This document shows, piece by piece, positions 14,029 through 59,577 of a stretch of DNA of 63,512 nucleotides. Within the stretch, counting starts at the first letter, position 1, and each line of letters starts with the position of its first letter. The position numbers and the translations under genes are program-made. Origin of the DNA: a virus (taxonomy: Duplodnaviria; Caudoviricetes); IMG/VR virus record IMGVR_UViG_3300006802_000101, positions 1 through 63,512 of that record; one strand, 5' to 3'. The notes below the pieces were generated by a model that saw only the letters and a list, made by a program, of their open reading frames with translations, did no database searches and had not been told where the DNA came from.

Positions 14029-14430
14029 TTATAAAAATATATCCTCTTTCTTATTGTGATTGTATATAGCTTTCTGATTGAACAACCATCCAATCAATGT
14101 GGCTGTTCTTTGAGTGTTTACATTCCTACATAAGTCAAGAACATAAACATTCTCTTTTTCATCATACCATATACCAACGTTATTATTATCGGACTTGTCC
14201 GAAATCCTATCAACAAAGCCAACTATACAATCAAGTATCTCTTGGTCTGAACCACTACAACATGTAGTATCGTCTGTTGATACTGCTACTGAATAGCCTT
14301 TGTTCACTGGAACTCCATCTCTAGTTAGTGTAATTCCTCCACTTTTTGCACCATTGAATAACTCAAGTGCTAATTTGTTTTTAGTTTCTTTATCCATTAT
14401 ATGTGTCCTCCTATTTTTAATTGTTCGCAT
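14029..14430 (-). CDS. hypothetical early protein (true start probably 14397, MDKETK)
   Basis: GG.T...GYSVA...VGIW...LD...QKAIY pattern; contains the SDKS palindrome. Confidence 0.65.
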   Translation of the reverse strand: MRTIKNRRTHIMDKETKNKLALELFNGAKSGGITLTRDGVPVNKGYSVAVSTDDTTCCSGSDQEILDCIVGFVDRISDKSDNNNVGIWYDEKENVYVLDLCRNVNTQRTATLIGWLFNQKAIYNHNKKEDIFL

Positions 14431-14684
14431 TCATATCTCCATTCAGAATCTGCTTCAGGAATATTCATACCCCTGTAATCATCTACCCCACTCCCATACT
14501 CAAAGTTAGCTTTACTGATAGCTTCATCTATTTTGTCTATAAACAAATCTTCGTTGTAGTTTAAATAACCATTAAGTCCATCAGAAAATTCTGATGTATA
14601 ATCTTCGTAGTCATCTTTATCTATATCAATCTCTACCTCTGCGTACTTGTGGTACACGCTTCTTTGCATAATTTTAACTTTCAT
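14397..14684 (-). CDS. hypothetical acidic early protein
   Basis: 95-aa ORF in a packed early operon. Confidence 0.65.
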   Translation of the reverse strand: MKVKIMQRSVYHKYAEVEIDIDKDDYEDYTSEFSDGLNGYLNYNEDLFIDKIDEAISKANFEYGSGVDDYRGMNIPEADSEWRYECEQLKIGGHI

Positions 14685-14922
14685 AATACTCTGGTTTATC
14701 GTTAGTTATATCTAATGTATTCTCTAGTAGTGTTTCTACTTCATCATATCTTTCGTTATAGAAATCTTGTGCCTCTTCTTTAAAGACAATACAAGTCCCA
14801 TCTGATAGACCATCTTGAATAGTTTCAAATGTATCTTCGTGAAAGTTTAGTTCGGTGAGTTGTGTAGCTATCTCGCTAATAAACTCAATCCATTTGTCGT
14901 TTGGTACTCTGTGTTTACTCAT
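14674..14922 (-). CDS. hypothetical acidic early protein
   Basis: 82-aa ORF coupled to neighbours. Confidence 0.65.
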   Translation of the reverse strand: MSKHRVPNDKWIEFISEIATQLTELNFHEDTFETIQDGLSDGTCIVFKEEAQDFYNERYDEVETLLENTLDITNDKPEYYES

Positions 14923-15392
14923 CTTGTGAAAGGTTTTAAATATATTGGTTCGTTCTTGTTTGCTACACTATGTTTCTCTCCAATGTAGTAATTCCAATAA
15001 GCAGTGATTGTATCTTCATGCTTGTATTCATCAGGCATACATTGTGGTGGAGGAATAAAGTCAAGTCTAGGCATATCTCTTGGAGGAGTTGATAATAACT
15101 CTGCACACTTGATAATGCTGAGATGTTGCTTGCCATAACGTCTAGTGTACTCATCACCCAAAGCCATCATATGTAACCAAAGCCAAGAGTAATGTTGTGT
15201 ACTCTGCCTTGTCCATATGGTTGATGGATGATTGTAGTGTGCTTTCTTGTATGGTACATGCTCTCCATTATCGTAATGATGGTGTGCTGTACATAGCATT
15301 TGAGCTGACTCAAGTATCATCTTGACTTTGTGTTTGTCATAGAAGTATGATGCACATACCTCTGGGTCTTCGTGTAAATAAAATATGTTCAT
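14919..15392 (-). CDS. pyrimidine-dimer DNA glycosylase/endonuclease V-like protein
   Basis: MNIFYL...DKHKVKMILESAQML...HYNHPSTIW...EYTRRYGKQH...PPQCMPDEYK. Confidence 0.75.
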   Translation of the reverse strand: MNIFYLHEDPEVCASYFYDKHKVKMILESAQMLCTAHHHYDNGEHVPYKKAHYNHPSTIWTRQSTQHYSWLWLHMMALGDEYTRRYGKQHLSIIKCAELLSTPPRDMPRLDFIPPPQCMPDEYKHEDTITAYWNYYIGEKHSVANKNEPIYLKPFTR

Positions 15393-15394
15393 AG

Positions 15395-15661
15395 TTATTG
15401 TATTGCGTATCCACTACATCTAGGTAGGAAATGTTTATTGTTTGATTTCATCATACCACCAATATCGTGTTGTATGGTTGATATTATTTCATGTTCACTT
15501 ATTCCGTTGTCTTCGCAGTACGTAATATATCCCTCTAAATCTCTAGCGAAATCATCATGCACAACCAATGTGAGCATCATCTCTGTTCTGTAGTTCATAC
15601 TATTCCAAAATACTGGAGCGTATTTTTCCATCATGTTGAATATGTTTCCTCTTGTTACCAT
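15395..15661 (-). CDS. hypothetical early protein
   Basis: 88-aa ORF ending TIQHDIGG...FLPR. Confidence 0.65.
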   Translation of the reverse strand: MVTRGNIFNMMEKYAPVFWNSMNYRTEMMLTLVVHDDFARDLEGYITYCEDNGISEHEIISTIQHDIGGMMKSNNKHFLPRCSGYAIQ

Positions 15662-15663
15662 AG

Positions 15664-16266
15664 TTATCTGTAGTTTTGTTTAATCTTTCTAAATCTTTCC
15701 CAAGTGCTACTCTGTAATAGTACCGGACTGATACCCAGTATGTTAGCAGTATACTTGTATGTATCTCTGAAGAAGTTGTATTGGTTGTTTGTCATACCAG
15801 CATAGTCTTCTTCTTGTATCCATCTACCAAGAGCAACTGATAGGGCATGCCTGTCAATAGTCACCATATCAGCTTTCTCAGGATGTAGCATATTCTCAAA
15901 GAATGATACAATCTTACGACCTTTGAGTATTGACTTGATGCAATCTTCACACCCATCACAATTAATGATGTCTTCAGCTTTCTTGACGAATGTTTTCATA
16001 TGCTTACCATCACCGGTTTCAATGAAGTGTATAGCACACTTTTTGTTTTGCTCCCAAGATTTGAGTGGACTGAGAGCTGAAACAATACCACAAGCAACTG
16101 ATACAGGTATGTCGTAGTCAGATGATAGTGATTTACAGAACGCATGTGCCTCTGCATACCAATCGTGTCTGTCGGACTTGTCCGATAAATTGTAAATCTT
16201 GAGTATGTTGTTCTTCACTTTGGTTCGGGATAACGTATTACCCTTGTATTGAATGCGTGTAATCAT
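15664..16266 (-). CDS. conserved phage early protein (DUF7178-like, possible glycosylase fold)
   Basis: WY..AH...ACGIVSALSP..SWEQN...KIVSF...VTIDRHA...LQSSTW pattern. Confidence 0.65.
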   Translation of the reverse strand: MITRIQYKGNTLSRTKVKNNILKIYNLSDKSDRHDWYAEAHAFCKSLSSDYDIPVSVACGIVSALSPLKSWEQNKKCAIHFIETGDGKHMKTFVKKAEDIINCDGCEDCIKSILKGRKIVSFFENMLHPEKADMVTIDRHALSVALGRWIQEEDYAGMTNNQYNFFRDTYKYTANILGISPVLLQSSTWERFRKIKQNYR

Positions 16267-16460
16267 CTCTTTTGTTTTTTGGTTTTTAAATATCTGTTCT
16301 CTTGTATGTTATCGTAGAAGAATCCGGTTACAAGGAAGTAGTTATCCCAAGTAATCTTTGATGGTCTACTTCTATTTGCATAGTGTTCCCTCATTCTATG
16401 TAACATCTCTTCTTTAGTTTCGGACTTGTCCGAATACTCTTCCTCTGTATCTTCTGTCAT
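16263..16460 (-). CDS. hypothetical early protein
   Basis: 65-aa ORF, ATGA-coupled; contains the SDKS palindrome. Confidence 0.55.
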   Translation of the reverse strand: MTEDTEEEYSDKSETKEEMLHRMREHYANRSRPSKITWDNYFLVTGFFYDNIQENRYLKTKKQKR

Positions 16461-16553
16461 ATTGAAAATAAGTTTACTATTATTAATGATATGATAGCTA
16501 TAAATCCCACATACATAACTACGTGTTCAGCTATTTCTATGTAATGCTTTCTA

Positions 16554-16958
16554 TTATCTCTTTTCATTTTCTACACTTAAATAAGGGTTTGTCATTGAAA
16601 TTTCTAGTTTACTGATATGTTCCACATAATCATACCAATCGCCCTGTTCTGAATGTATTGCTCCATCTTCTCCCATACAGACCATAAACGTATCTAATTC
16701 ACAATAGTCTGATATAAGTCTGTTTACTGCGTCAACATCAGGGTAACCATCATACCATTTTAAGTAATCTCCAACCCATACAATCCAATATTCTGTATGA
16801 GTTACTTTAACATTGTTGTCTTTATCAAACTCATACCAATCGTATGTCCTCTCATACCATTTAAAACTATCTGTTAAGTCGTGTTCTTTTAGAACTTTAT
16901 CTACTGCTTGTCGGTGTTCTTTTTTGACACCAAATATTACTTCACTTCTATATCCCAT
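16554..16958 (-). CDS. hypothetical early protein (MGYRSEV...LKWYDGYPDV type)
   Basis: 134-aa ORF with A-rich leader. Confidence 0.7.
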   Translation of the reverse strand: MGYRSEVIFGVKKEHRQAVDKVLKEHDLTDSFKWYERTYDWYEFDKDNNVKVTHTEYWIVWVGDYLKWYDGYPDVDAVNRLISDYCELDTFMVCMGEDGAIHSEQGDWYDYVEHISKLEISMTNPYLSVENEKR

Positions 16959-16979
16959 AATTTAATTTAGTTTTAGTTG

Positions 16980-17234
16980 TTAAACTCCATATTGTGTCCA
17001 TCTGTTAATGTGTTCTATCGTATCAGTCAAGTCCTCAATACTATCTTGTTGTCTGTGTATTAGTTCATCTTCAATTAGTTCGTCAATCATCTGATACTTT
17101 TCCATATAGGGATAGTGTTCTATATGATTACCAAACCACTCACTATACAATCCCTCTACTTGTGAACGATTAAATTGTTCATAGTACTCTCTTTGGGAGT
17201 CTTCCCAATCTTGTAACAAGTCTTTCTTTTTCAT
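16980..17234 (-). CDS. hypothetical acidic early protein
   Basis: 84-aa ORF. Confidence 0.6.
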   Translation of the reverse strand: MKKKDLLQDWEDSQREYYEQFNRSQVEGLYSEWFGNHIEHYPYMEKYQMIDELIEDELIHRQQDSIEDLTDTIEHINRWTQYGV

Positions 17235-17458
17235 TTGAATTGTATTGCTTTTGATAGGTTGTCGTTTTCTGTTTTAATATTCTTACCATCTCTCAACTCT
17301 ATGTAGTGAGCGTGGTTGTACTTTACTTGGTCAAGTAACCGGTCAAGGTCTACTTGGTCGTAGTCGTACTTACCATTGTCAACAAAGTTGGCGATAGTTC
17401 TTAAGGTTGATACTACATCATCTTTGTAGTATTTCCATTGTGCTTTTCTAGTATCCAT
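17231..17458 (-). CDS. hypothetical early protein
   Basis: 75-aa ORF. Confidence 0.6.
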   Translation of the reverse strand: MDTRKAQWKYYKDDVVSTLRTIANFVDNGKYDYDQVDLDRLLDQVKYNHAHYIELRDGKNIKTENDNLSKAIQFK

Positions 17459-17460
17459 AG

Positions 17461-17835
17461 TTATTTAGTTTTCTTTAGTTTAATTAAATCTTCTTCTATT
17501 AACATCTCAAGTATCTTTTTTGCTGACGTGTGGTGGTCGTAACCCATTCTCACATCAACAAGTTCGAGTTCACGTCCATTAACTTCAAATTCATACTCAT
17601 CTATGTCCCAAGCTTCCGGCTCATTACAATACATATCGTCTAGCTTGTGTTCCAAGGTTGTCCATAAATCATCGTATTGTTCTTCTGTTATTGTTGTTGC
17701 CTTTAGTTTATCCATAATGTTCTGTAATTTAGTTTTAGTTTTAGTTAATAATTTTCGGACATGTCCGATAGTTTTCTGTTCTAGTTTGTCTAGAAGGTAT
17801 GCTTCCCTCATAGACCATTCAAATCTAATCTTCAT
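17461..17835 (-). CDS. hypothetical early protein (possible alternative start at 17715)
   Basis: 124-aa ORF; internal AACTAAAACTAAATTA leader-like tract before MDKLKA. Confidence 0.55.
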   Translation of the reverse strand: MKIRFEWSMREAYLLDKLEQKTIGHVRKLLTKTKTKLQNIMDKLKATTITEEQYDDLWTTLEHKLDDMYCNEPEAWDIDEYEFEVNGRELELVDVRMGYDHHTSAKKILEMLIEEDLIKLKKTK

Positions 17836-17837
17836 AA

Positions 17838-18155
17838 TTAAAATATTGCTACTTTTTCTAATAATTCTCTTGTGTATTTCCTAACAATTCTTTCTTTGTA
17901 CGTTTTATGTAACTCTAATTTGTACTTGTGTTCTAATGCTGAAGGTGAAATAGATTTAAAATACTTGTGTCTTTCAGCTTGTATCTCTTGATTGTACTCA
18001 CCATATTCAGTGATATATTCCATGTAGTTAGGGAGAGAACCACCTAAAAACAGAGCTATTTCTCTGTGTATTTCAAACATTTCTTTTGCTTTTTCTTCTA
18101 TGTATTTATTAGCTTTTAATTCTAGTTGTTTTTGGATTTCATTAGTGTCTTTCAT
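17838..18155 (-). CDS. hypothetical early protein
   Basis: 105-aa ORF. Confidence 0.6.
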   Translation of the reverse strand: MKDTNEIQKQLELKANKYIEEKAKEMFEIHREIALFLGGSLPNYMEYITEYGEYNQEIQAERHKYFKSISPSALEHKYKLELHKTYKERIVRKYTRELLEKVAIF

Positions 18156-18552
18156 TGTTATTATTTAATTGGTTAATAAATTCTACTACTGATTCGTATG
18201 TAAGTTCAAGGTCAAATTCATAGTGTGATATTTCTTCATAATATTCTTTTGGAAATATATCTTCCAGATTATCCCAATCATACTTACCTACTTCTTCTAT
18301 TTCGTATGTACTATCCATACTTCTAATCTTGTTTATCACCGGCATAAGCCAATCCCAAGATACATTGTAAGATAGTTCGTGTTCTTCATACCAACTCCCA
18401 CTATTAAACTCTCTAAAGTAGTAGTTTACCTTACCACTTTTAAAGACTTCTGTTGGGAGTCCCATAAATTCTGCTATGAGTTTGTTGTGTGTTATTACTT
18501 CTTCCATATTAACAATATATTTCGTCCGGCATATTCTGTTGTAGGTCATCAA
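18142..18552 (-). CDS. hypothetical early protein (true start probably MEEVIT)
   Basis: NKLIAEFMG...LSYNVSWDWLMPVINKI motif. Confidence 0.65.
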   Translation of the reverse strand: MMTYNRICRTKYIVNMEEVITHNKLIAEFMGLPTEVFKSGKVNYYFREFNSGSWYEEHELSYNVSWDWLMPVINKIRSMDSTYEIEEVGKYDWDNLEDIFPKEYYEEISHYEFDLELTYESVVEFINQLNNNNERH

Positions 18553-18790
18553 TCTTCTTGCAATATTCTACATACTTCCAACACTCTGATAGAGTTTTGT
18601 ATGCGTATTGCCAAGCTTCAATATCATTGTCAGCGTGTGCTTCTTCCATTTCTTCTGATGCACCAATCCAATGGTAATACATAGTATCGTTGTAGTCGCC
18701 TCCAGATTGATTGTGAAATGCGTCTGAAATTTTGTTGTAAAGTTCTTCACAGCGTAATTGCATTAATGTTAACTTTTCTCGTTTAGTCAT
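18509..18790 (-). CDS. hypothetical early protein
   Basis: 93-aa ORF. Confidence 0.6.
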   Translation of the reverse strand: MTKREKLTLMQLRCEELYNKISDAFHNQSGGDYNDTMYYHWIGASEEMEEAHADNDIEAWQYAYKTLSECWKYVEYCKKIDDLQQNMPDEIYC

Positions 18791-18795
18791 AATAA

Positions 18796-19008
18796 TTATT
18801 TGTTAAGGTTAGAGTTTTCGGACTTGTCCGATTTAATTAAATTGTTTAGTTGCTCAATGCTATCGCACTCGTTTACCAATGTATTCCAAACGTGGTAATA
18901 CTTTAGTGGTGTCTTGATAGCTGATGCCTTGAGCCGTGATAGTGATGAAATGTATCCACCACCACTTCTCATATTAGTTGGTGCTAATGTTCCTGTTTTA
19001 GTTTTCAT
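18796..19008 (-). CDS. hypothetical early protein
   Basis: 70-aa ORF; SDKS palindrome near the C-terminus. Confidence 0.55.
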   Translation of the reverse strand: MKTKTGTLAPTNMRSGGGYISSLSRLKASAIKTPLKYYHVWNTLVNECDSIEQLNNLIKSDKSENSNLNK

Positions 19009-19229
19009 AATCCCATCGCATAATCCGTTATTCTGTCTTCCATCATATCTGTATCAAAGAATCCAAAGTAGAAATCTGTTATATCATCTCCGTTAGCCAA
19101 CACCTTGCTGATTGTTACAATAGTTTCAGCTGGTTGCTCCCACGTAGCTGGTGCGTAATAAAAGTCATACTCTATCTCTAGTATGTTATCATTTATTTCT
19201 TCCGAATATGTTCCCGTATGTGTTCTCAT
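19005..19229 (-). CDS. hypothetical acidic early protein
   Basis: 74-aa ORF, ATGA-coupled. Confidence 0.6.
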   Translation of the reverse strand: MRTHTGTYSEEINDNILEIEYDFYYAPATWEQPAETIVTISKVLANGDDITDFYFGFFDTDMMEDRITDYAMGL

Positions 19230-19543
19230 AATAACTGATAGTATTTGTGTTGCATACTTTCAATCAAGTGTCTGCCGTTAGCCGTGTGAAAGCCGTAGCT
19301 ATGTGTATGTAAGCTATCCATAGGTACATTTGCTAGTAGCAATTCCATAAGGTTGTACTCGTTGCAATCCATATCATCAGCGACCTCGTTGATAGCTTGT
19401 GCTAGTAGGTCGGTGTTGTGTCTAGGTTTCTGTCCTAGTTCCTCAGTAATGTATCGTTCTACAATACTTCCGGTTAATCTGTAATCATTTTCGGACTTGT
19501 CCGATAAAACTTCTGCTCTCATAGGTCTAATATTTTTTACCAT
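19226..19543 (-). CDS. hypothetical early protein
   Basis: 105-aa ORF; SDKS palindrome near the N-terminus. Confidence 0.6.
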   Translation of the reverse strand: MVKNIRPMRAEVLSDKSENDYRLTGSIVERYITEELGQKPRHNTDLLAQAINEVADDMDCNEYNLMELLLANVPMDSLHTHSYGFHTANGRHLIESMQHKYYQLL

Positions 19544-19625
19544 TAATTACTCGGTATGCGTTAGCTCTTGCTTTAGCTACCTCTTTCCTTACTTTGATAG
19601 TTCTGAATGTACTCATATCTTTTTA

Positions 19626-19925
19626 TTAGTGGATTATTATTCTTACTCCGTACTTGCTTTCATTTGGAGCGTCCATTGTAAACTCAATCTCAAACCAATG
19701 GTGGTCTTTATTCCACTCACATTTGTAGTCGTTTACATAAGCAAACTTAGAGGCATTGTCAAACTTTTGCACAAGTTCGCTGAATGTGTAAGGTTGTTTT
19801 CTTCCGTTCCATTGCAAACATACGGCTCTGGTATCAACTGATACATTGAAAAAGTCTTCAATAGTCAATTGTAAATCTGCTTTTAAAAATTCTTCGAAAA
19901 GATTTAGGCTCTCTAATTTAGTCAT
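19626..19925 (-). CDS. hypothetical early protein immediately downstream of the hammerhead ribozyme
   Basis: 99-aa ORF with A-rich leader. Confidence 0.65.
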   Translation of the reverse strand: MTKLESLNLFEEFLKADLQLTIEDFFNVSVDTRAVCLQWNGRKQPYTFSELVQKFDNASKFAYVNDYKCEWNKDHHWFEIEFTMDAPNESKYGVRIIIH

Positions 19926-19942
19926 AATAATAATTTAGTTTA

Positions 19943-20026
19943 GTTACAGACACTAAGGTTCCTGTCGTTTATTAGCTGGTACTAATTACCTTAGTGTTTC
20001 GACCTCTTTGGTCTCATCAGTGTAAC
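19943..20026 (-). ncRNA. type I hammerhead ribozyme
   Basis: minus strand: stem I GUUACA / core CUGAUGA / stem II GACC-AAAGA-GGUC / GAAA / stem III CACUAAGGU...ACCUUAGUG / GUC cleavage triplet (C at 19949) / UGUAAC; all core nucleotides canonical; intergenic. Confidence 0.92.
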
Positions 20027-20046
20027 ATATCGGACTTGTCCGAAAA

Positions 20047-20466
20047 CTATGCGATTTGCATAGCTTTCTCTAGTCCCTTACCTATTGCTTGTACTTGCTT
20101 ATCTGATAGGTCAGTCTGCTTCTCTAGTAGCTTTTGTATCTGCTCGATAGTATCAACTACTTTCTCTCTCTTGACATTGTCCACAAAGATATACTCTCCT
20201 GTTTTTCTATCTGATAGTTTTAGCTTGACACTTTTACCCTCATAATCCTCACTTGAAGTGATACGCTTGAGTGTACGTTGTAGGGTGTTTAGTCCCGTTG
20301 ACTTACTACCTTGTTCCATATAGAAGTATTGTGCTACGTCTAGAATGGTGTTGCCTTTGTCTTTGACTAGGCTTTCGCTAGTCAGTTCCGTTACTTTCTT
20401 GTCAGCCTTGCTGATTGAAAGGATTGCAGTTCTAAGGTCTTTTGCAGTTGGTGATAAATGTTTCAT
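20047..20466 (-). CDS. hypothetical early protein
   Basis: 139-aa ORF, first gene after the promoter at 20513-20544. Confidence 0.7.
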   Translation of the reverse strand: MKHLSPTAKDLRTAILSISKADKKVTELTSESLVKDKGNTILDVAQYFYMEQGSKSTGLNTLQRTLKRITSSEDYEGKSVKLKLSDRKTGEYIFVDNVKREKVVDTIEQIQKLLEKQTDLSDKQVQAIGKGLEKAMQIA

Positions 20467-20512
20467 AAGATAATTTAATTTAATTGATTTAGTTACTTGT
20501 TTAATTCTTTTG

Positions 20513-20544
20513 CAAAGCTATGAATAATTTTTGACATATCCAAA
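20513..20544 (-). promoter_or_regulatory. early promoter P2 (Bacteroidota type)
   Basis: TTTG-N20-TAGCTTTG on the minus strand. Confidence 0.75.
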
Positions 20545-20577
20545 TTGTGCCGGACTTTTTTTTCGGACTTGTCCGAT

Positions 20578-20904
20578 TTATGCCCATCTATATCTAGAGG
20601 CTCCCTTGTCTCGACCTCTAGCATCTAGCCTATTGTTTAGCCTAGTGTAATATACTTGAGTCGCTAGTATCTTGATTACCCCGTTCTCTCGGTAACAAGT
20701 GTATAAATCCCCGTTACGTCTGAAGTGATACTTTTGTCCGGTTAAGCCGTTGGTCTTGAGTTTATAACCTTTGTAGTTATCTAGTAAACCCTCTTGCTTC
20801 TCTCTAGACTTTGCCCAAGCTAACTTGAGTGCTACGGACTTGTCCGAAATTTTGGTTGTACGGATTACGTACCACATATACTTGAATATATCGCTCTTAC
20901 TCAT
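20578..20904 (-). CDS. basic hypothetical early protein (first early gene)
   Basis: 108 aa; KYMW...SVALKLAWAK pattern; contains an SDKS palindrome variant. Confidence 0.65.
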   Translation of the reverse strand: MSKSDIFKYMWYVIRTTKISDKSVALKLAWAKSREKQEGLLDNYKGYKLKTNGLTGQKYHFRRNGDLYTCYRENGVIKILATQVYYTRLNNRLDARGRDKGASRYRWA

Positions 20905-20927
20905 TGCTGTTATTTTTGATTACTTTG

Positions 20928-20959
20928 CAAATCTACAACGAATTTTTGACATACACAAG
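20928..20959 (-). promoter_or_regulatory. early promoter P1 (Bacteroidota type)
   Basis: CTTG-N20-TAGATTTG on the minus strand; shares the spacer sequence TATGTCAAAAATT with P2. Confidence 0.7.
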
Positions 20960-21150
20960 TCGCTGAGTATCAGTGAGTTACGTGTTTTACCAAGTTGTAA
21001 CTCATTGAATATCAGTCAGTTACAAGATTGACAAATCGTTATTTAGAATGAATATAAATAAGCAACTCACTGAGTATCAGGCAGTTACAATGTTATTTTT
21101 ATTTAGACTAATTCTAAATAGATGTAAGTCGCTGATTATCAGTTAGTTAG
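20955..21150. repeat. four 27-bp imperfect palindromes GTAACTNNCTGA-N3-TCAGNNAGTTAC (IHF-site-like)
   Basis: copies at 20955-20981, 20997-21023, 21062-21088 and 21124-21150; each contains TATCAG-N4-TTA. Confidence 0.85.
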
Positions 21151-21518
21151 GTATAATTGGGTTTATGGTGGTTCTTTTATTAAGTAATAAACCACGGACA
21201 CGAATAACAAAATAAATGACAATTCCAAATTTTTTAGTAACTTTTTTTTCAATTGTTGATAAATAAATAATAACTTTTACTAGGATTATTCAAAAAGACT
21301 TTTTCCTTATCTAGTAAATTGCTTCTATTTGACGTTCTCAAAGTTTTAATATATGGGTATCAGAGAGGGTACAAAGTAGCTTAAAACGGCTTATTTTTAT
21401 ACCTGTAAAATTATTGATATGTGCAAGTATTTAGGTAAAAAAATGATGGTCAATCGGCAAATTTAGATTGATTCTAAATAGTGAGGGGTATTGTCCCTTG
21501 TCTAGACTCATTCTAAAT
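21041..21518. promoter_or_regulatory. four 19-bp inverted repeats ATTTAGA-N5-TCTAAAT (Fur-box-like)
   Basis: 21041-21059, 21101-21119, 21461-21479 and 21500-21518. Confidence 0.65.
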
Positions 21519-21659
21519 TACAAAAATAACCGGCAAAAGGTTTGGAAGGGTACGGGAACGAGGGTACACGGGTACACAATTTGACTTTCTGTTGTGCGTA
21601 GTGGGATGTGCGGGGGTGTATAATACCCTAGCTACCCAAAACTAACCCCTTCATGCTAC

Positions 21660-21690
21660 AGCATTGCTCAAGCATTGCATCAGCATTGCT
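21660..21690. repeat. AGCATTGCT iteron-like repeats (reverse complement of the 13458 unit)
   Basis: units at 21660, 21671 (AGCATTGCA) and 21682; 11-bp phase. Confidence 0.6.
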
Positions 21691-31432: not shown

Positions 31433-31463
31433 TTTGAAATTGTTAATAAATATATTATATTTG
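31433..31463 (+). promoter_or_regulatory. late promoter with TGTTAATAA box in the spacer
   Basis: TTTG-N19-TATATTTG; box at 31441-31449. Confidence 0.75.
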
Positions 31464-37214: not shown

Positions 37215-40200
37215 ATGGCTAACGAAAAGAAAATATTTGTAGGGGGTATGGATAGAGACTCCGACTTGAGATTTGTCAAGAATGGAGACTATAGGGATGC
37301 TTTGAATATAAACGTATTCTCTACAGAAGAAGACGGTGAGGTTGGAGTAATATCCAACATGAAAGGTGCAGAGGAAATAAAGAGATACCTTGGTATAAAT
37401 TATTATGGAAACCAACATAAAGTTATTGGGGCTGTAGAAGACCCGTCTTTTGACAGGGTTATATTTTTTGTAGCTTTTACTGGTTTAGATGTTCCAGAGT
37501 TTTCTTTGTCTGATTCTATCGTTGAGTATAGCCTAAAAACAAATGAGTGCTATACTATTCTACAATCAGATGAACTCAATTTTAATCCTCAGTATAGGAT
37601 AAATGATGCTTTTATAGTGGGCCATAAAGAAGACTATTCTCCAGAGGGCTTTTTGTATTTTAATGATAACTACAACCCTCCTAGGAAAATAAACATAGCA
37701 GAGGAAAAATTAAATGCTCCAGCATCTTTAGCTGAGATAGTTCCTTCTTCCGGAGGTAGAAAAAAATATAAAAACATAGTAACAGGCTTTGAGTATGAGG
37801 GTGTTTCACCTACTCTACAAGGACTGTTAGGTCATGGAATCACATTACAAGAAAGAATAAATGTTGCTAGAATAGCACCATTGATAAAGCCCACTGTAAC
37901 GATTTCTACAGATAGTTCTTTCAAAGCAAACTACGTAAAAGGTAAAGCTTTTAAGTTTAAGTACAGATACCAATACAAAGATAAACAGTATTCTGCTTGG
38001 TCTCCAATATCAGAAATGATAGCCACTGAAGAAGGTACTCCGCAAACAAATGGTACATCAGCTGATTTAAGTCAGCAAAACTTAATAAAGGTAGGTATAA
38101 AAATATCTAATAGTGATATAGAGTCTGTAGAGCTAGCTGTGAGAGATTTAACAAATTCAGATACTTACGGATTGGTAGATACATTATCTTATTATAATCA
38201 AGATGGATTTTATTATGAAGGCAATAAGATAACGGATAAATTTTTAGTTGGAGGATACGCTGACACAACATTAAATCAAGAGTCGGCTACAATAGTATCT
38301 AGTAATTCTATTGTTGAATATTATTTTTATAACAACGAAATATACCCAGCTATAGATTTAAGAGAGTCAACTAAGCTTTTTAACAATATACCTATAAAAG
38401 CAAAAACTCAATCTCTTATTGACGGAGGTAGGATTGCATATGGTAATGTGGTTACGGGTAGAACCGGTCATAATCCAAAACTTAATGTTAGAAATTATGA
38501 TGCTGGTGATATAGAGACGAATACAGTGAAAGGGCCAGTTACAGCAAGTGCAAGCTGTGCTTATCGTTATAAAAAATGGAAACCTGGAAGTCAACAGTCC
38601 TTTTGTTCAAGAAGAGCGGTGTGGACATGTAATTACACTGTTAATGTTAAATTTAACGATTTGCCTGATGATATGACTTTTGGGCAATATAATGTAATTA
38701 TAAACAATCTGCCTTTTACCGCTATGTGGGGTGAAGATGTAGATGATACTGTTAATTCAGCTTTAGGATTTTTTAATTTATTCGAAAACTCCGGAAACCC
38801 ACCTGGAACACCTAGCAGTAACAATGCTGCTACTGTAGCACAAACATTTTACAACTCAGTCATTTCAAACTTAACTGGAGGACAAATATCTAGTGGAGCA
38901 AAAATAACATCAGCAAATTTTACAGGAAGCGATATGGTAAAGCTTGTTGATGCTGATAACGCATACCTTAGAGCTGGTCATGTAGACGCTGTGGATATAG
39001 CTGATAATGCAAATTCTGGGTCTGGTAATTCAAACTGTACTTTTGGTACTAGTGATTCCTACATAGAGGATAATGCAAGCTCTTTTAGTGAGCACAACTT
39101 TATATCTATAAGTGGGGATACCATAACATTTAGATGGAGTGTTCTTTTTAACTTCTACAATTATAACAGATGGAAAAGACCTAATTGGCCAGTAAGAGAC
39201 CATGGTTGTTTTGTGGGTATAAATAATTTATCTGAGTTTAATAATGATACTGGTAATAGTCACAACAGAATTAATGTCATAGCAGAACAAGTTGTATCAA
39301 ATATAAATTCTGACGTATCCTATAGTGATACTGGCGGATGGTATCCTGATGTTAGTAGCAGTGAGTTTGATTGGAGAGATTACATTGAACAACAGGGAGG
39401 CGACCTACAGGCTCAAGATACTATACTAAATATATATAAATCTGTAGTAACAAGTAACGCTACTTTGGAGGTTCAATATACTCAGTTAGGGTATAAACCT
39501 GTAGAGACTGGTTTTAAAACAGGTTCTTGGCATAATTTTGGTGTTGTATACTACGACAAACAAGGTAGAAGCTCTTCTGTTCAGGGAAAAACATCTGTAT
39601 ACATACCAACGCACTTAGAGAAAGATGATGATGCTGATGGTGAAGTTACCACAACATTAGATAGGTATGGAGTAGAATATTACATAAATAATTTACAAGC
39701 TCCATACTGGGCTGATAAGTATCAAATTGTATATACTGGAAATAGAAATATAAGAAAGTTTGAGCAATTCGTTACTGATGGATTTCATACCTCCACAATT
39801 TTTCCAGACGTTGTATTTGTAAACGCAAACCCTTTGTTTAATGCGTTAGAAACCAGTGGTGGTAAAGGTGTAGATGCTCAATTTGAACCAGGAGATAGGT
39901 TAAGAATATTAACATCAACTACAGCAGCTCTTAATGGAAAGCTTAATGATGGGCCTTTTGATTTTCAGATAGTAGATGTTGTAAAGGTTACAAAACACAC
40001 TCCTACAGAAGGTAATGAGTTGGTCGCTAATATACAACAAGCTAATGACTATACTGCGGTAGAGATAAAAGGTCACCACTTAAATGTAACAAGAACTCTT
40101 CATACTGATACAGCACTACCTGTACCGGAAAGAGATGAAACAGACCTTTATTTTGTTTTAAACAAATCTGACTTTGACCAGACAAGTGTATATACGTCTG

Positions 40201-43200
40201 GCAATAGTTTAGCTCTAGGTGGTAATGCTAAAGTTCTAGCTGATAGTCTTGTTGAGGTTTATTCATTAAAAAAAGAGGTAGATGAGGATGAATTAATATT
40301 CTTTGAGTTTGATGAAATTCATGATACAGTTAAAACAACCTCTTCTTTAATGTACGCTAATTTTACAGAAGGCTCCAGTACTGTTCAAATAGACTCTGAT
40401 AATTTAGCTGAATATCCTCAAATAGTAGAGGGAGTGGTTGTTCAAAACGCTTTAGCTTTTCCTTATGGTGCTGTTGTTGAGCAAGTTATAAGAAACTCTT
40501 CTAATCAGGTTACATCGTTTATAACTTCAGCTCCAGCTTCATTAACAGTGGATTCAGTAGGGACTTTAGAAACCAAGTTCATATCTAACACTCATGGTGT
40601 TGGTTATAATTCTGATGGAAGTGAATATTTTAAACTTACAAGACAAGGAACAAGTGAGCCTAATGGAGATGTATACACTAGGATAAGAAGATATAGAACA
40701 GATGGAGGTATTGTTTCTGCTGGTGTAGAAAGTTATCATTTTAGCGATTTTTTTAAGTCTGACTTTTGGAATAGTGGTAGGGCTAATAAAGAGCTAGAAA
40801 GTTATCATGAGTCAAGAAAACCAAATACTATAATATACACCGATTCAATAATAGGGAATACATATATCAATGGATTAAATTCATCTTTTGAAAATGAATA
40901 TTTTACCGAGTTTGATAAGTCTAATGGTACTATACAGAAAATATTTGCAAGAAACAATTACATTGTAATATTCCAAGAGGATAAAGTGTTAAAAGCTTTT
41001 GTAGAAAGAAACATGACTTTTGACGCTTCTGGTTCAGGCAACCTGGCTTTATCTAGTGAGATAATATCAAAATCAGTTCCTTACGAGTGGGAGGGAGGTA
41101 TAGGTGAGCATCCTGAATCGTTTGCTAGTTACGGTGACACAATGTATTTCTTTGATTCACAAAGAGGAGAGGTTCTTAAAATACAAAACGACAGAATAGA
41201 ATTAATATCCGATAAGGGTATGTCTTCATTCTTTTCAAATAAAGCAAAAGAATTAGCTTTAATGGGTAATAAAGCACAAATAATAGGTGCTTATGATACC
41301 TCCAAAAATGAATATGTATTATCTTTTGAAGGTGCTTTTGAAGAAGAAGTGGTTGAACTTTGTGAAGTGGCTTCTGGAGGTGAATACTGGAACTCACAAG
41401 ACACTTACAATCCTGGGGATGTTGTGAACTACGCCTTATCATCTGATGAGCAAGAGGAGTCAGGTGATTTAGCAGAAATAATATACATAGCTGTAAGTCA
41501 AAACACAAATATAGTTCCTTACAGCAACTCTAGTGTTGTTACAATTGTTTTTGTTAGTAATTCAAATGCTTTATGGAGCCCTGGTGACACTATAAATATA
41601 CCAGCTCCAGCTGGGGCTACCGCCACTACATCTGGTGTTATTACTGTAAACTCAGTGACTAAACCTGTGGCTTCTGTTTCCATTAATGCTGCTGGTTCTG
41701 GTTACGAGGTTGACGATATTTTAGCAGTTGATGGAGACCAGAATTATGATAACCCCTTACTAATAAAAGTTTCTTCTATTGGAGCAGATGGAGCTGTAAC
41801 AGGTTTAACAATACAAGATGGAGGGGACTTTACAGGTTTTAATATACCCACAACAGGATTGATTGCTGTTTCAGAAGATGGAGATGGTGAGGTAGATGAT
41901 TTTACAGGATTTGGATTGTCTGTGGATATAACATACTCTGCTGTTGGACAAATAGTAGACTACTCTTTAACATCTCAAGGTGATTACACAGCTTCTGCTA
42001 ATGCTTATACACCTAGTGTTGAGGATGGTGATAAAACAGCATCTTTACAGGTTACAACAGCTTCGGCTTGGACTGTTTGTTCCGGACTGGGAGCACAAAT
42101 AGGTTGTACAGATGATATAGCTAACAATTACTCTTCAGAGGCTATATACGATGATGGCTCATGTAATTATGATTGCCTTGGGGTTGTATTTGATGATGGA
42201 TGCGGTACTATCACTGCAACATCTACACCTTCTACCGTAAACCTAGAAGAACTTGTTTCTTTTAACCTGGTAGACCAAGCTGTAGGGAGTATAGATTACG
42301 CAATTACTAATACATGTGAGGGTTCTGGTACTGAATATCACACAGTTATTGTTAGGAATGGTCAGGTTGTTTTAATAGACCTGTATCACAATAATGAGGT
42401 AATTTACGAGAATTTATTAGCTGGATTTTATAATTTTATAACTGTAGACACAAACTCTATAGAAGCTAATTTAGGTAGTTTTACTTTGCCAGAAGGGTTT
42501 ACTGACCCTTTTGATATAGATTTACCAGAAAGCACTATAGAAGCAAATGCAGTTATATTATATAACATATTACAAGATTGCGGAGTACAAACAGAGGTTG
42601 CTGTTCAATTACTAGCCTGCGATAACCCCGCAGCTGTAAATTATGCTTCAGGGTATGGTGAGGGAATAGTTATAAATCCAACAACTATAGGTGAGCCAGA
42701 CCCTTGTACTCTTGATATATTTGGTTGTACTAACTCTTCATCCCCAAATTATGATTCAGATGCAACAGCTGATGATGGGTCTTGTATTGTATGTTCAGAG
42801 GATGATGGAACTAATAATTTATTTGGTGTGTTTGCACCTGACGCTGTAGGTATTCAAACTACAACTTTTGATATAGAGGTGAGTTTGACAGATGAAGCTG
42901 AGTACGAAGGGTGGATTCCTCAATATATCGTTACTGTTTTTAAGGATAATCAGGATGGAGAAATATTCTTCCAGCAAGAGTATACAGATATTGATGGATA
43001 CTTAGAAGTAGGGACAGGAGGCACAGTAAGTATCGAAGGTTTAGACCTTACTACAGGAGGATTAAACCCTCAACTACAGACATATATGGTTCGTGTAGAA
43101 GCGGTTGATTCTTGTACTGTAGACCAGTTTGTTACACCAGGATGGATAGGTTGTACTACTCCTGAATCTGTAAACTACAACGCTTTAGCTACGGAAGACC

Positions 43201-46200
43201 CAGGAAACATATGTGTAAATTGTACAAATGTACTTAATGAGTTTGAGGTAATTTCTTTTAATGGAACTGGCCAACCAACAGAACTTGGTGTTGCTGGAGA
43301 CTCAAACAATCCTAATAACTTGCAATTAGTATTTAGTCCTGGATTATTTGAAGACAACAATCCGGGAGTTACTATGTCTTACGAGTTTTCATTAGTTAAT
43401 GAAGATACCGGTGCTCCTATATTGGATTCTAATAGTAATCCTATAGTGCAAACTGTAGTGGGTAGTAGTAGTGCAGAATATACTGTTAACTTTGAAAATG
43501 TATTCTTTGATGGTTTAGGTGATAATAATTATAGAGCTGATATAAAAATAACATCTTCTTATTCAGATAACTCTCTAGAGTGCTTTACTGATGCTTCTAC
43601 AACTGTAGGTTTGTATGGATGTACTACTAACGTTTATTCTGGAGGAGAGTTAGATGGTTTATCAACAGAAAACTATAATGAACTAGCTACCGTTGATAAC
43701 GGTACTTGTTTCACTTGCGGTCAGTATAGTATCATCAATGTAAGTACAGTTGCTGACACTAACGGTTTAGGTAGTGGTAGTATTTCTCTTACGGTACAAA
43801 ATTTATTATCAGGCGTATATGCGATTGAAGTTTTAAATCCTGAAGGATTAGTAATAAACCCTACACTTACAGGTATAGATGGTTCAGGTTATGTTATTTA
43901 TACTTACGAGGGGTTAACTACAGGTGATTATAATGCATCACTAATACTTGATGCTCCTTATGATATTTGCGATATTAGTGAAACTATAAGTGTTTCTAAC
44001 GATATACCTGGGTGTTTAACTGAAACATCACAAAACCACCTAGTATCTGATTATGGAACTCCTAATGTTCAAGCTACATCTTTTCCTGATGCTTGTCAGT
44101 TCTGCCCTCCTAAATGTTCTTGGAGTCAAGAGACTTTAAACCCAGGAGGATTTGATGTAGTAAATAATTTTGATGGAAGACCTGAAAATATACAAGGATT
44201 CCTTTTCAACACAATAGTAAGTGACGCTTCTTCTCCTGGTGCTGTAGACGGTTCTATAAAATTCCAATTGATAAGAGGTTCATTTACAAACCCATCCAAT
44301 CCTGGTGGGCCTAATCAAGGTGCTGATTCTTGGGTTGACGCTTCTTCAGAGATTCAATCTTTTATAAATCTTATGGAGCTTGGCGGTCAGGTAAGATTTA
44401 ATTTATATAGTGACCCTGGTTACACTGAAATAATACAAACTGCGTTAGTTGGTCAAGCTGAGTTTATTGCCTTAGAAAGCAATTATGCACTTCAAACTGA
44501 TACTCCAATAGTTGTAGCTGAGTTTACAGGCTTAGATGGAAATGACAGTAGTGGAAACCCTACTGAATATTACTATCAGATTGAGTATCTACAAGTTCCT
44601 CAAGCAGAGGCTTCTTCTAATAGTTCGTTCTTTGCTAACCCTGATGCTTTTGCAACAAACAGCCCTTATTTATTGACTAACTCAGCTTGTTCTGAAGCTG
44701 ACTTCAATATAAATAATGATTCTTACTTTAGAATACAATACAAATATTTAGAGGGTTGTAGTTATAAATATGAAGCAACTATTACTGATGAAGGTTGTCC
44801 TAGTATACAAGGTTTATTTGGAGCTTTTCCTTCAAGCGTTTGGAGTGATACAAATATTAGTGCTAACAGCTTTAGTGTCGATAATGTTTTAAACATAACA
44901 CATGCTAGCATGGTGTCAGGTGATGCCACTCTTGATGACTCTGTAGGTGGAGCGTTATCTGTGACTGGTTCTAGCAGTAATCCTGGGTTCTGGGCTGATT
45001 CTGTTAACAATGGAGGCAATATAGAATATGTTAGATACCAATTAAGGGTTCAAGAAAATACATCTGCTTCTGGGTATGATGACGGTGATTTAAACGGTGT
45101 AGTTGGTCAAGTTACGGTTCAATATTCAGCTGACGGAACACCTGTAGCTTCAATTCTAAGTAACCCAAATAACGGTGTTAACCCTACTGCTTACGGTGGT
45201 GGTGTAGAATCTAATTTAACTGAAGCTGGCTCTACAGGATATAATTTTTCTTTCACAAATCTTAGACCAGCTATATATAAGCTTAAAGTTACTATTCATT
45301 TTAGTACTTCAGATATAGAGTGTGTCAAAGTGATAAATGATATTGAAGTCAAACTTTATGGTTGTAAATTTAACGGTGCTACAAACTATAATTCTGAAGT
45401 GGAGTATCCTACTGAACAACAGTTGGTTTTAGGTGATTGTGGAGCTATTTGCTGTATGCCTGATATAACTGATTGTGCTGACCCTTCTGCTACAAATGTT
45501 ATAGATGTATTTACTGATGCCTACACCAATAATGTAACATTTCAGTACGATGATAACAATATAATAACTAGTGCTTTCTCTTATGGAATATACAGCAACG
45601 CTTATCAATTTTACTGGGATATAATTAATGACGCTGATTCTTGTTATATAGCTGGATGTATGAATCCTGATGCTAACAATTACAATGCTAACGCTACAGT
45701 TCCATGTGATGAAGAGGGAACTTGGGATGTCAATAACTCGGATGACAATACATGTTGTGCTGGTTGCATAGACCCCACAGCTCTAAACTACAACTCTAAT
45801 TTCGGTAGTGATTGTTCTGGTGTTGAGGGTGGAAATAATCACGGATGTTGTAATTATTTAATTGGCGTTAGTGGAAATGTATTGAATGTAAACGATGCAC
45901 AATTTTATAATCAACATAACGAATTATTAGGCTTAGAGTATACTAGAGAATGCGACATTATATATGGAGGCCTTCAGTTTGTAAACGAACAAATTACAGT
46001 TACTGGAGTAGCAAGTATAGAGAACGGGGATGGTGAAGTGCTTTATAGTAATATATTTAGCAATGGTGTTAGCCAATTTACGGCTTTGAATAATGACCCT
46101 AACAATTCCATGGGTAGTAATATCATTAATGAGCCAATAGAAGTAGGTTTAACTTTTAATGCAAGCACTTTTACTCCTGGGACTAGTAATGGTGCATATT

Positions 46201-50986: not shown

Positions 50987-53900
50987 ATGGCTGAAGAGCA
51001 AGTATTACAAGTACAGGGTGCGAATCCTGATGATAGTGATAACACTACAACGATTACTAATAGCGGAAGGGATGCATTAAGTGTATACCCTTCTTTCTAT
51101 GCTACGGCTATGGCTAACGATAGTAATCCTGAAATGATTCGCCAAAAGTTTCCTGAGCTTGATGACTCTCAGTTTTCTTTATTGACATCTAAGTTTTACA
51201 AAGACTCTAGTCAAGAGCCTCAGTATTACACCGTTCAAGAAGGTGATAATTTTGGCTCTATAGCTAAAAATAACAATCTATATCAATTTGACTTATCAAA
51301 GTTAAATCCTAGAGTAAAAAAAGATAAACTTAGTATAGGTCAGCAGTTGGTTGTTGGAGGTTCTCCAGAAGCCAACCTTTCTTCAGCTATATACAGTAGA
51401 GATGTTGATTATACCAACACTATAACTGAAAACATAAATCCTGAGCAAAAGCTAAACATTATAGGTCATATAGAAACAGGTAAGTCTGCTGAGGTTGCAA
51501 GAGGTGAAGACCCTTACTCTATAGAGAATAGTTCTGGTGCTATGGGTAGGTATCAAATCAAGTTCAATGAAAAAGGGCCTGATGCTAATTATAGAAAGAT
51601 ATTAAAAGATGGTGGTTTTGATGTAAACACAAAGGAGCAGTTTTTGGCTAATCCAAAAGCACAAGACTTTTTAATGACTAACTTGTTAAATAATGATTAT
51701 GCTAAACAAGTTACTCAGATAAGAACTCAAGCTACAAAACACTCATCTAAGTATTCTGACTTTGACATCATGATGTCTATACATAAGATAGGATACCCGC
51801 AAACATTAAAAAAATTAAAAAAGGGTAGTTTACCAGTTGGAGAGGTAAAAAACCTAAAAGGTGAAAGAATAGATGATGAGGTAGGAACTTATGTACAAAA
51901 CGGTAGAGATTTCATAAAGAATAATGGTTACGATAATCTTTTGTTTTCTCAAGAGAATAGATACTCTAGAGATGGTACTAGAATCCCTACAAACTACTAC
52001 CCTGACGGAGACCCTGAACTTGTTAGAACTGGAAAGGCTACATCTTCAGCTCTTCAAAAATCAGACAATATCAAGAACGTTATAATAAATGAAGATGAAT
52101 TAGATGACGCTGAATTTCAGTGGTATACATCTAATGATTACAAGAGATTCACAGATTTTGTTCGATTAACAAACTCTTTGGTGTCAAAGGAGGTAAATCA
52201 AGCTTTTTCATTTTTAGACCCGTCTACAGAGTTTGGAGATGTAGAATCAGCTGAAGTAGCTATTAGTAGTTACAACGAGGCTAAAAATAATATATTTGCT
52301 AATCAAGTAACTAGATTGCAAGAATACATTGAATCAGAGCCTTTTGAAAGATTGATAGCTAGTATAGGTCAGGAAGGTTCGTTCTCATCTGAAGATTTTG
52401 ACGAGGATAGCGATTTATTTGAAGTGGTTGGATTTTCAAACAAATATTTACAAGGAGAAGCTTTTCTTAGTAAAGTGTTGTATGATGAAATTGAAACACA
52501 AGTGGGTCAAGTATTTAATGAAGCTATAGTTCAAAATATCTTGCCATTATTAAGTGGTAAAGAAAATTTTGAAGAATATGAAAATTATCTTGAGGAAACG
52601 TCTAATTACAACAAAGAATACGTTGAAAAATTTCCACATTTAATTGACGGCTCTGCTGTTGCTGGAGGATTAACAAATACTACTAAAGAAGATGTTGCCA
52701 ATAGAAGGGATTATTATACATTTGCTTTTGATAAACTAGAGGGTATATTTCCAAAAGGAGTTTTAGATGGAATACCAGCGGTCATAAAAGAAGAGTTGGC
52801 TGTTAGAGCCGCTGATTCACATTGGTGGAACACTAGCGGTGCTAAAGATGAATATGACCAGATAATTGCTGAAAACCTAGAAACTTATGGTGTTATAGAC
52901 CCACATCAAGCTATGATGCAATGGAACAAAAGATATTTTGACCTGTCTCAATCAAATATATCTGAAGGAGAGATGTTTAATCAATTAGAGTCTTACGCTA
53001 AAGAATTAGGGGCTTTTGATGTAGAAACTTCTCCTTCTGCTGATGGTGGTTACAGCATGATTATAATACCAAATCAAGTAAACCAAAAATCATTTGACAC
53101 AATACAAAACTTAGCTTATCAAGATATTGAAAACAAATATCCAAAAGGAGAAGTTGATAATAGCTTGGAGTATTTTGTAAAAGAATCTGTAAATAAAAAC
53201 TCTTTGGGTTTAGCTTACACAGCTCTTACTGATAGAAAGCTATTTAGTACTTACGGGTATAATCCTTCAGAATCAGAAGGTTTTTGGACAGATGTAGGTT
53301 CTTTTGTGTTTGACCCATTATTTATGGCTGGCGGTGCTCTTGGTAAAGCTGCCGTTAATTATGGAGGTAGGTTTGTAATAAATCAGTCGTGGAAAAACAC
53401 AGTTAGAGGTGCTGCTAAATTAGAGGCTGCTGGATATACTACAGAACAAGCAACAAGAGCTTATAAGTTGTATAGTGCGGCTAAAATGAACCAAAAAGGT
53501 TATAAGTATGTTGCTACAACTGTTCCTGGAGCTACTAGTTTTGCAACATTTGATGCTGGTCAAGATGTATTTAGACAAAAAATATCTGCTGGAGAGTGGG
53601 CTGAAGTAGATTATATTCAATCACTAAAATCTGGTGGAAAGGGATTTATTTTAGGTTTTGGAGTTTCTAACGTAGGGTATGGCTTTGGTAGGATGTACAA
53701 TCAAATGGCTCAAAGAGGTATACCTAAGTATGCTGAATGGTTTGCAAAGCCTGTAGAGTTTGGAGCTGAAGTTTCTGCATTTACACTGGGTAGCTCTGTA
53801 TTACACGGAACAGATATAAAATTTCAAGATTTTGTAGAAACAGGTAAGTTTCTAGGTGGCCTTAAATTAACTCACGGTATAAGAAACGCTCCTCATAAGA

Positions 53901-59546: not shown

Positions 59547-59577
59547 TTTGTTAATAACTTTAAAAACACTATATTTG
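59547..59577 (+). promoter_or_regulatory. late promoter with overlapping TGTTAATAA box
   Basis: TTTG-N19-TATATTTG; box at 59549-59557. Confidence 0.75.

Follow-up and report, generated by a model that had tools for sequence, protein, structure and literature searches.

A canonical, evolutionarily maintained hammerhead ribozyme was shown, from its sequence and from comparison with homologues, between co-oriented genes of a ~63.5-kb phage genome. It is quite probably a functional type I hammerhead which acts in the early small-gene arm of a phage with a Flavobacteriia-like host and takes part in the processing of an early transcript; from the analysis of its surroundings, cutting of the early polycistronic transcript is its likely role.

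The stretch of DNA analysed (the window) was the whole IMG/VR virus record IMGVR_UViG_3300006802_000101 (63,512 bases, 35.5% GC, completeness estimate of 100%). The minus strand, from ~23.4 kb down to 0.1 kb, carried small genes and replication genes, and the plus strand, from 24 kb, the structural genes: terminase, portal, head proteins and two giant ORFs. Both giant ORFs sit in the structural arm: 37215-47183 (+, 3322 aa), part of whose length matched a PHROG “virion structural protein” family and nothing else, and 50987-59530 (+, 2847 aa), which had a single small match. The window terminase matched 136 records of GenBank phages, every one of them below 60% identity and the best named ones at 35-40%; by organism, these records were Flavobacterium (68), uncultured (36), Cellulophaga (15) and a few others. 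Since the terminase relatives were mostly Flavobacterium and Cellulophaga phages, the host is probably a member of Flavobacteriia. Positions 19000-21000 gave no match to the GenBank phage records by blastn.

Architecture, chance expectation and fold of the hammerhead

The core of the hammerhead was fully canonical (C3 U4 G5 A6 N7 G8 A9, G12 A13 A14, A15.1-U16.1 and H17 = C), and the core-adjacent pairs A2.1-U1.1, G10.1-C11.1 and A15.1-U16.1 were all present. Stems I, II and III had 6, 4 and 10 bp respectively, and a three-topology descriptor assigned the element to type I alone: stem I open, stems II and III closed by loops. The positions of its parts and of the neighbouring features are summarized in Table 1.

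Table 1. Coordinates of the hammerhead, its parts and the neighbouring features in the window. Minus-strand features are given in the direction of the RNA.
Feature	Position	Strand	Details
Promoter-like repeat copy	20953-20924	-	30 nt; upstream of ORF 20904-20578
Promoter-like site nearest upstream of the ribozyme	20544-20509	-	TTTG, 20-nt spacer, TAGCTTTG
TTTG-N17-21-TAnnTTTG sites before ORFs	23266-23236, 20544-20513, 1737-1707	-	
TTTG-N17-21-TAnnTTTG sites before ORFs	31433-31463, 59547-59577	+	
Upstream ORF	20466-20047	-	139 aa; last gene of the predicted 5' product
Palindrome copy	20042-20031	-	CGGACAAGUCCG; 4 nt past the upstream stop codon, 4 nt before stem I
Type I hammerhead, complete	20026..19943	-	84 nt; from sequence, descriptor, fold and homologues
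Stem I, 5' strand	20026-20021	-	GUUACA
Core	20020-20014	-	CUGAUGA
Stem-loop II	20013-20001	-	GACC-AAAGA-GGUC; arms 20013-20010 and 20004-20001, loop AAAGA
Core	20000-19997	-	GAAA; GAA = 20000-19998
Stem III, 5' side	19997-19988	-	A15.1 and CACUAAGGU
Stem III tip insert	19987-19960	-	28 nt; A, then the hairpin, then AAACGACAGGA
Inner hairpin of the insert	19986-19971	-	AUUAG-UACCAG-CUAAU; arms 19986-19982 and 19975-19971
Unpaired 3' side of the insert	19970-19960	-	AAACGACAGGA, 11 nt
Stem III, 3' side	19959-19950	-	ACCUUAGUG and U16.1
C17, cleavage nucleotide	19949	-	predicted cut 19949/19948, GUC
Stem I, 3' strand	19948-19943	-	UGUAAC
A/U-rich leader left on the downstream mRNA after the predicted cut	19948-19926	-	23 nt
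Downstream ORF	19925-19626	-	99 aa; first gene of the predicted 3' product

Our own type I descriptor (CUGANGA, a closed stem II, GAAA, a closed stem III ending in U-H and an open stem I) was run on both strands of the window and matched the element itself and nothing else. With loose thresholds (stems of at least 4/3/4), 5 matches were obtained in 300 first-order Markov shuffles, i.e. 0.017 per window, and with thresholds of 6/4/8 none of the 300 shuffles matched. The minimum free energy (MFE) fold of 101 nt was the hammerhead structure (z of -2.51, 5 of 200 shuffles folding as well), and the same fold persisted in a context of 191 nt (z of -4.40, 0 of 200 shuffles as good).

An earlier, sequence-only reading had described a complete type I hammerhead at this site, with a 9-bp stem III and a predicted GUC cut 23 nt before the ATG at 19925. 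The complete ribozyme was borne out by the canonical core, the sole descriptor match, the MFE fold and homologues in two related phages (G001 and G009, described below); the coordinates of the cut and of the ATG were correct on the sequence, and the 9-bp count holds if the A15.1-U16.1 pair is left out. A comparison with the Rfam hammerhead models, which the same reading had put forward as a check, turned out differently: no family reached its gathering score, and the whole window gave 0 matches at gathering thresholds. The best score was that of RF03152 (RAGATH-1 hammerhead; 25.1 bits vs. a cut-off of 56.3, E of 0.029 over 261 bases), with RF00008 (Hammerhead_3) at 18.1 bits (cut-off 48.5) and RF00163 (Hammerhead_1) at 13 bits (cut-off 34). 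RF00163 aligned only part of the element, and the shortfall coincided with the long stem III insert. The low scores are probably due to this insert, since the models leave part of the element unaligned; the case shows that hammerheads with a long insert in a stem escape standard Rfam annotation.

No complement to loop II (AAAGA), nor a pseudoknot of this loop with the stem I tails, was found by eye in the window, G001 or G009. Among the 21 type I hammerheads aligned, 17 had an A two bases past the 6-bp stem I, which is no more than a hint of a non-Watson-Crick contact. If loop II and stem I made no tertiary contact, cleavage would be predicted to be slow at physiological Mg2+.

Homologues in related phages, metagenomes and RNA libraries

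An exact search of the viral contigs with the 25-base core and stem II retrieved two contigs, G001 and L003. G001 is a 24-kb fragment of a distant relative (terminase 38.9% and portal 37% identical to those of the window) and carries a type I hammerhead whose stem III insert is of the same kind. The mean column identity between the two elements was 91% over 91 columns, and all 50 pair cells were paired: stem I had one changed pair, stem III two and the inner hairpin of the insert another two (5 of the 25 pairs in all), both partners had changed in each of the five, and no pair was broken. In a control in which the partners were slid by 1-3 columns, only 29-35% paired. Because its pairing was kept through two compensatory changes, the inner hairpin is, on this comparison, under selection. 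The CCAG of the hairpin loop and the AACGAC of the unpaired strand were common to both inserts, and stem II was unchanged. Nucleotide similarity ended at the edges of the element plus its A/U-rich leader, and none of the window early ORFs matched G001 at E 1e-4; this single pair suggests a lateral exchange of the element between phages. In a 176-nt context, the weak A/U stem I of G001 was missing from the MFE fold (z of -0.33, 73 of 200 shuffles as good), and RF00163 scored 15.3 bits (cut-off 34). The 76-aa ORF just downstream of the G001 hammerhead (locus L077) has a clear paralogue ~1 kb upstream in the same array (the two ORFs are 1254-1484 and 2431-2661, both on the minus strand).

The second contig, L003, carries a type III hammerhead (~1470-1527, +); its stem-loop II (GACC-AAAGA-GGUC) is identical to that of the window. 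This type III hammerhead lies directly after a hairpin and ahead of an ORF.

A covariance model of our own, built from the window and G001 pair, was searched in 30 records of terminase relatives and found real matches in two of them: G001 and G009. A hit in G004 (E of 0.337 with the same model) had a broken core and unpaired stems, and was discarded as a hammerhead. G009, a complete 60.7-kb phage whose terminase is 43% identical to that of the window, has a compact, minimal type I hammerhead of 50 nt without insert; the sequences of its stems I and II differ (GUCC/GGAC in the case of stem II) and still pair. It scored 41.7 bits with our model and 35.9 bits with RF00163, above the cut-off of 34. 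The three-topology descriptor was run on 8 long related records including the window (five of them at least 97% complete, and one represented by its first 60 kb), and gave a single hammerhead in each of three records (the window, G001 and G009); G002, G003, G004, G007 and G017 had no match. Two of those lacking it, G002 and G003, have terminases with 70% identity. Since the distribution is patchy (2 of 30 records; 3 of 8 including the window), the phage lineage does not need the hammerhead. Relatives of the flanking ORFs were also sought in viral_contigs for syntenic copies, and none was confirmed: the downstream ORF had no relatives there, and the upstream one had a weak relative in G003 (33% over 72 aa).

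The long-insert pattern was found at one locus of viral_contigs, G001 again, and at 64 loci of metagenome_contigs, with 30 matches at E <= 0.01 using our model. Of the metagenome loci, only L115 and L139 had the insert, and both scored 116.9 bits, exactly as G001 did, so that only two distinct long-insert sequences are in hand. The other metagenome loci were rejected as long-insert forms: these loci had the usual short type I hammerheads, followed downstream by AACGAC by chance. When 21 type I hammerheads were aligned, 99.4% of the cells paired and 19 of the 25 pairs covaried, values reached by 0 of 500 shuffles, in an alignment fitted to the model and made of sequences preselected by a pattern which fixes part of stem II. 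Three of the loci contained tandem type I hammerheads, in a clustered arrangement as described for prophages and with a spacing of ~250-290 nt: L131 (+; 654-707, 902-955 and 1193-1246, one copy with CUGACGA), L102 (-; 1229-1278 and 1472-1521, one copy with CUGCUGA, i.e. a changed core position) and L117 (+; 950-999 and 1193-1242).

The contigs of four metatranscriptome runs, in which DNA carry-over is possible, were compared with positions 18800-21200. Contigs from X16 and X19 matched the neighbouring ORFs in part (identity of at least 99%), outside 19730-20295, and X20 had one contig over 19997-20135. The four libraries contained no contig which crossed the cut site with 31 letters, and no contig end coincided with this site. 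A contig from X18, belonging to a ~92%-identical relative, was alike on either side of the hammerhead interior (20013-20506 and 19932-19951) up to its end at 19932; between these flanks, the 61 letters 19952-20012 were replaced by 69 different ones. A third variant of the hammerhead interior thus probably exists.

Gene context, transcription signals and dispersed repeats

The hammerheads of the window, G001 and G009 all lie in a gap between small ORFs of the same strand, shortly before the next ATG: the leader left after the predicted cut measures 23, 24 and 21 nt, respectively. In G009 the upstream ORF reaches stem I, with a stop codon that shares bases with the start of the element.

In the window, the order in the direction of transcription is: the repeat copy 20953-20924, ORF 20904-20578, a palindrome copy, the repeat copy 20538-20509, ORF 20466-20047, a hairpin over the stop codon of this ORF, another palindrome copy and the ribozyme. 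About 20 small ORFs follow, down to ~13 kb. The sequence-only reading had proposed that cleavage separates the first two early genes from about 20 downstream ones. The downstream count stands, and so does the pair of ORFs between the nearest promoter-like repeats and the ribozyme; they are the “first two” of the nearest transcription unit only, because approximately nine more minus-strand ORFs (23305-21651), with their own promoter-like site, lie further upstream.

The promoter-like site nearest to the ribozyme includes the second copy of the 30-nt repeat (20538-20509) and has a TTTG / TAnnTTTG arrangement; the repeat itself had 2 matches in the window vs. 0.00 expected. This arrangement is that of the Bacteroidota housekeeping promoter consensus; the window sites fit this consensus and a flavobacterial host. 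TTTG-N17-21-TAnnTTTG sites numbered 7 in the window (shuffle mean 2.6, maximum 8), so that the number of sites is not significant by itself; five of them were directly upstream of ORF starts (Table 1). The promoters were assigned by motif only, and would probably be used by the host RNA polymerase. Sigma-70 promoters (42 vs. 43.5) and terminators (7 vs. 5.4) were not enriched in scans of the window.

A stretch of ~750 nt without ORFs, upstream of the early promoter-like site, contained two repeat families at 20938-21521: four imperfect palindromes of ~27 nt (AACTCACTGAGTATCAG..AGTTAC type) and four palindromes of 21 nt (ATTTAGA.T.ATTCTAAAT type). Both families resemble operator or iteron arrays and might mark a regulatory hub or an origin. 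Three tandem copies of TGCTNCAGCATTGC, with 11-nt spacing, were present at 21654-21690, at the 3' end of ORF 21818-21651.

The 12-nt palindrome which precedes the ribozyme (CGGACAAGTCCG on the minus strand) had 9 copies in the window vs. 0.63 expected, at 14190, 16173, 16421, 17756, 18819, 19492, 20031, 20564 and 20835 (span 14190-20846), flanked on the minus strand by a T-run on the 5' side and an A-run on the 3' side. Eight of the nine copies had the same orientation, and the ninth was symmetric, with an AT centre. Two copies were 2-4 nt past stop codons, and six of the seven inside called ORFs shared the reading phase (xCG GAC AAG TCC, Ser-Asp-Lys-Ser) and mostly occupied codons 10-28: the starts of these ORFs were over-called or, alternatively, only one frame accepts the motif. 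Judging from its strand bias, the palindrome may well be an RNA-level or single-strand signal and not a symmetric protein operator. Eleven copies were found in G003, all on one strand of the early region, and 0 in G001, G002, G004, G007, G009 and G017. A coupling between the palindrome and the hammerhead, which had been suggested from their proximity, was not upheld: G003 has the copies and no hammerhead, and G001 and G009 have the hammerhead and no copies. Since each occurs without the other in relatives, the two elements are independent, and the partial match between the palindrome and the 5' hairpin of the RAGATH-1 model is most plausibly coincidental.

Proposed role, alternatives and known systems

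Hammerhead cleavage is site-specific and leaves a 2',3'-cyclic phosphate and a 5'-OH. In the proposed mechanism, the arm would be transcribed leftward from 20953-20924 and/or 20544-20509, presumably by the host RNA polymerase, and the RNA would fold into a three-helix junction which, judging from its canonical core, would self-cleave after C17. The upstream message (ORF 20466-20047, possibly together with ORF 20904-20578) would carry the folded ribozyme and a 2',3'-cyclic phosphate at its 3' end, and the downstream message would begin with a 5'-OH and the A/U-rich leader, predicted to be unstructured, before the ATG. The first six bases of the leader are the 3' strand of stem I, and these bases of a weak stem would be the only remnant of the ribozyme on the downstream product. 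Because of the type I topology, with a stem I of six weak pairs, the two products should part readily. Overall, the ~20 following genes would thereby become independent of the promoter-proximal ones in message stability and in translation.

The discordance between the 91% identity of the element and the 38.9% identity of the terminase in the window and G001 can also be read as the trace of a passenger: an active cassette formed by the hammerhead and its short leader, of little or no benefit to the phage, which moves laterally and spreads by recombination among the early regions of distantly related flavobacterial phages. The early ORFs without matches in G001, the similarity which stops at the edges of the element and leader, the absence from G002 and G003 in spite of their closer terminases, and the very different stems of G009 all fit such a cassette. 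We nevertheless consider it unlikely: the constant placement in three phages, between same-strand ORFs and with 21-24 nt separating the cut from an ATG, speaks for an element which the phage uses, signs of mobility (a mobility gene, a target duplication or a second copy) were not seen, and, with two distinct sequences of the long-insert form known, the argument is that of one pair. The insert raises a further alternative, a conditional ribozyme in which the hairpin and the 11-12-nt unpaired strand would bind a protein or a small ligand, or pair with an RNA, and so control stem III and cleavage. The two compensatory changes of the inner hairpin and the shared CCAG and AACGAC would agree with this, and regulated cleavage of phage hammerheads is raised in Perreault 2011 (PMC3088659). 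On the other side, the non-core unpaired columns differed in ~27% of cases vs. 20% for the paired ones (in two sequences), which gives no hint that the unpaired bases are specially constrained, a 10-bp stem III is stable unaided, the insert matches no Rfam family and the G009 hammerhead has no insert at all; conditional cleavage is therefore improbable, and no binding motif can be claimed, because the unpaired bases of the insert differ about as often as the paired ones in these two sequences. A bolder version combines lateral movement and control: a portable message-cutting cassette, swapped between distant flavobacterial phages, whose insert is a platform for a protein or an RNA which makes cleavage conditional. 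It follows from the 91% vs. 39% identity of element and terminase and from the unrelated flanking genes, and we give it a small probability.

That the element might be an inactive relic or a chance look-alike without catalysis could be argued from the sub-threshold Rfam scores in every family and from the tertiary contact, which was not identified; against this, the chance expectation was 0.017 per window even with loose thresholds, all core nucleotides are canonical and the 5 pairs differing from G001 are all compensatory, so this explanation is very improbable. A composite of the RAGATH-1 kind, in which the palindrome hairpin 20042-20031 and the hammerhead act as one unit, is next to negligible. 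It would account for the alignment by RF03152, the top Rfam match in the 261-base search, of the palindrome to its own 5' hairpin, but the score was less than half of the gathering score, the hairpin is one of nine dispersed copies, hairpin and hammerhead occur separately in G003 and in G001 and G009, and the upstream ORF of G009 extends right to stem I.

A functional hammerhead which processes the early transcript is thus the reading we prefer. Phage hammerheads have been catalogued since 2011 (PMC3088659), and their function is still unproven according to a 2019 review. The element described here extends this catalogue by a cleanly placed example from a complete phage genome: a single ribozyme follows directly on a promoter-proximal gene pair, its predicted cut leaves a 23-nt leader to the next gene, and the homologues of two other phages are placed alike. 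It leaves the knowledge of the class unchanged, being a solid and fairly ordinary member, and provides a concrete construct for asking whether cleavage sets the relative expression of early genes in hosts with A/U-rich leaders.

In Perreault 2011 (PMC3088659), phage and prophage hammerheads were proposed to cut long transcripts into shorter messages. The window element resembles the type I phage hammerheads of that work in its core, its three-helix junction with an open stem I, its setting between co-oriented genes and its proposed role; it differs in being single, and not in a gene-flanking cluster, and in that a pseudoknot between loop II and the stem I tail was not found by eye. The hammerhead of the haloviruses HF1 and HF2 (HHphage), described in the same work (PMC3088659), is also located in an early region, short of a start codon in a polycistronic transcript (13 nt there, 23 nt in the window), and a transcript 5' end was mapped at most 3 nt from its cleavage site, whereas the window cut is predicted from the sequence. 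HHphage is, in addition, a structural variant thought to need high salt and belongs to an archaeal virus (PMC3088659), in contrast with the fully canonical core of the window element and the Flavobacteriia infected by the relatives of the window phage.

With respect to the Rfam families, the compact G009 copy passes the cut-off of RF00163 whereas the window copy, with its 28-nt stem III insert, does not. RAGATH-1 (RF03152) consists of a hairpin followed by a type I hammerhead, resembling the palindrome and hammerhead of the window, but stem II is a single pair in the model vs. a 4-bp helix in the window, and the window hairpin is a dispersed repeat, independent of the hammerhead in relatives.

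In phage T7, the early polycistronic mRNA is cut by the host RNase III at intergenic double-stranded hairpins, leaving a 5'-phosphate and a 3'-OH. The outcome would be alike, with shorter messages arising from an early multi-gene transcript through cuts at structured sites between genes; the means differ: several sites and a protein enzyme in T7, one site and a predicted self-cut with 5'-OH and 2',3'-cyclic phosphate ends in the window. Synthetic insulators of the RiboJ type, engineered from a plant satellite RNA ribozyme, place a hammerhead upstream of a coding sequence to remove the upstream RNA and leave a defined short leader. The window element shares with them the self-cleaving hammerhead ahead of a coding sequence, and the defined short leader which would result, but it is natural and of type I, and nearly all of the ribozyme is predicted to stay on the upstream fragment.
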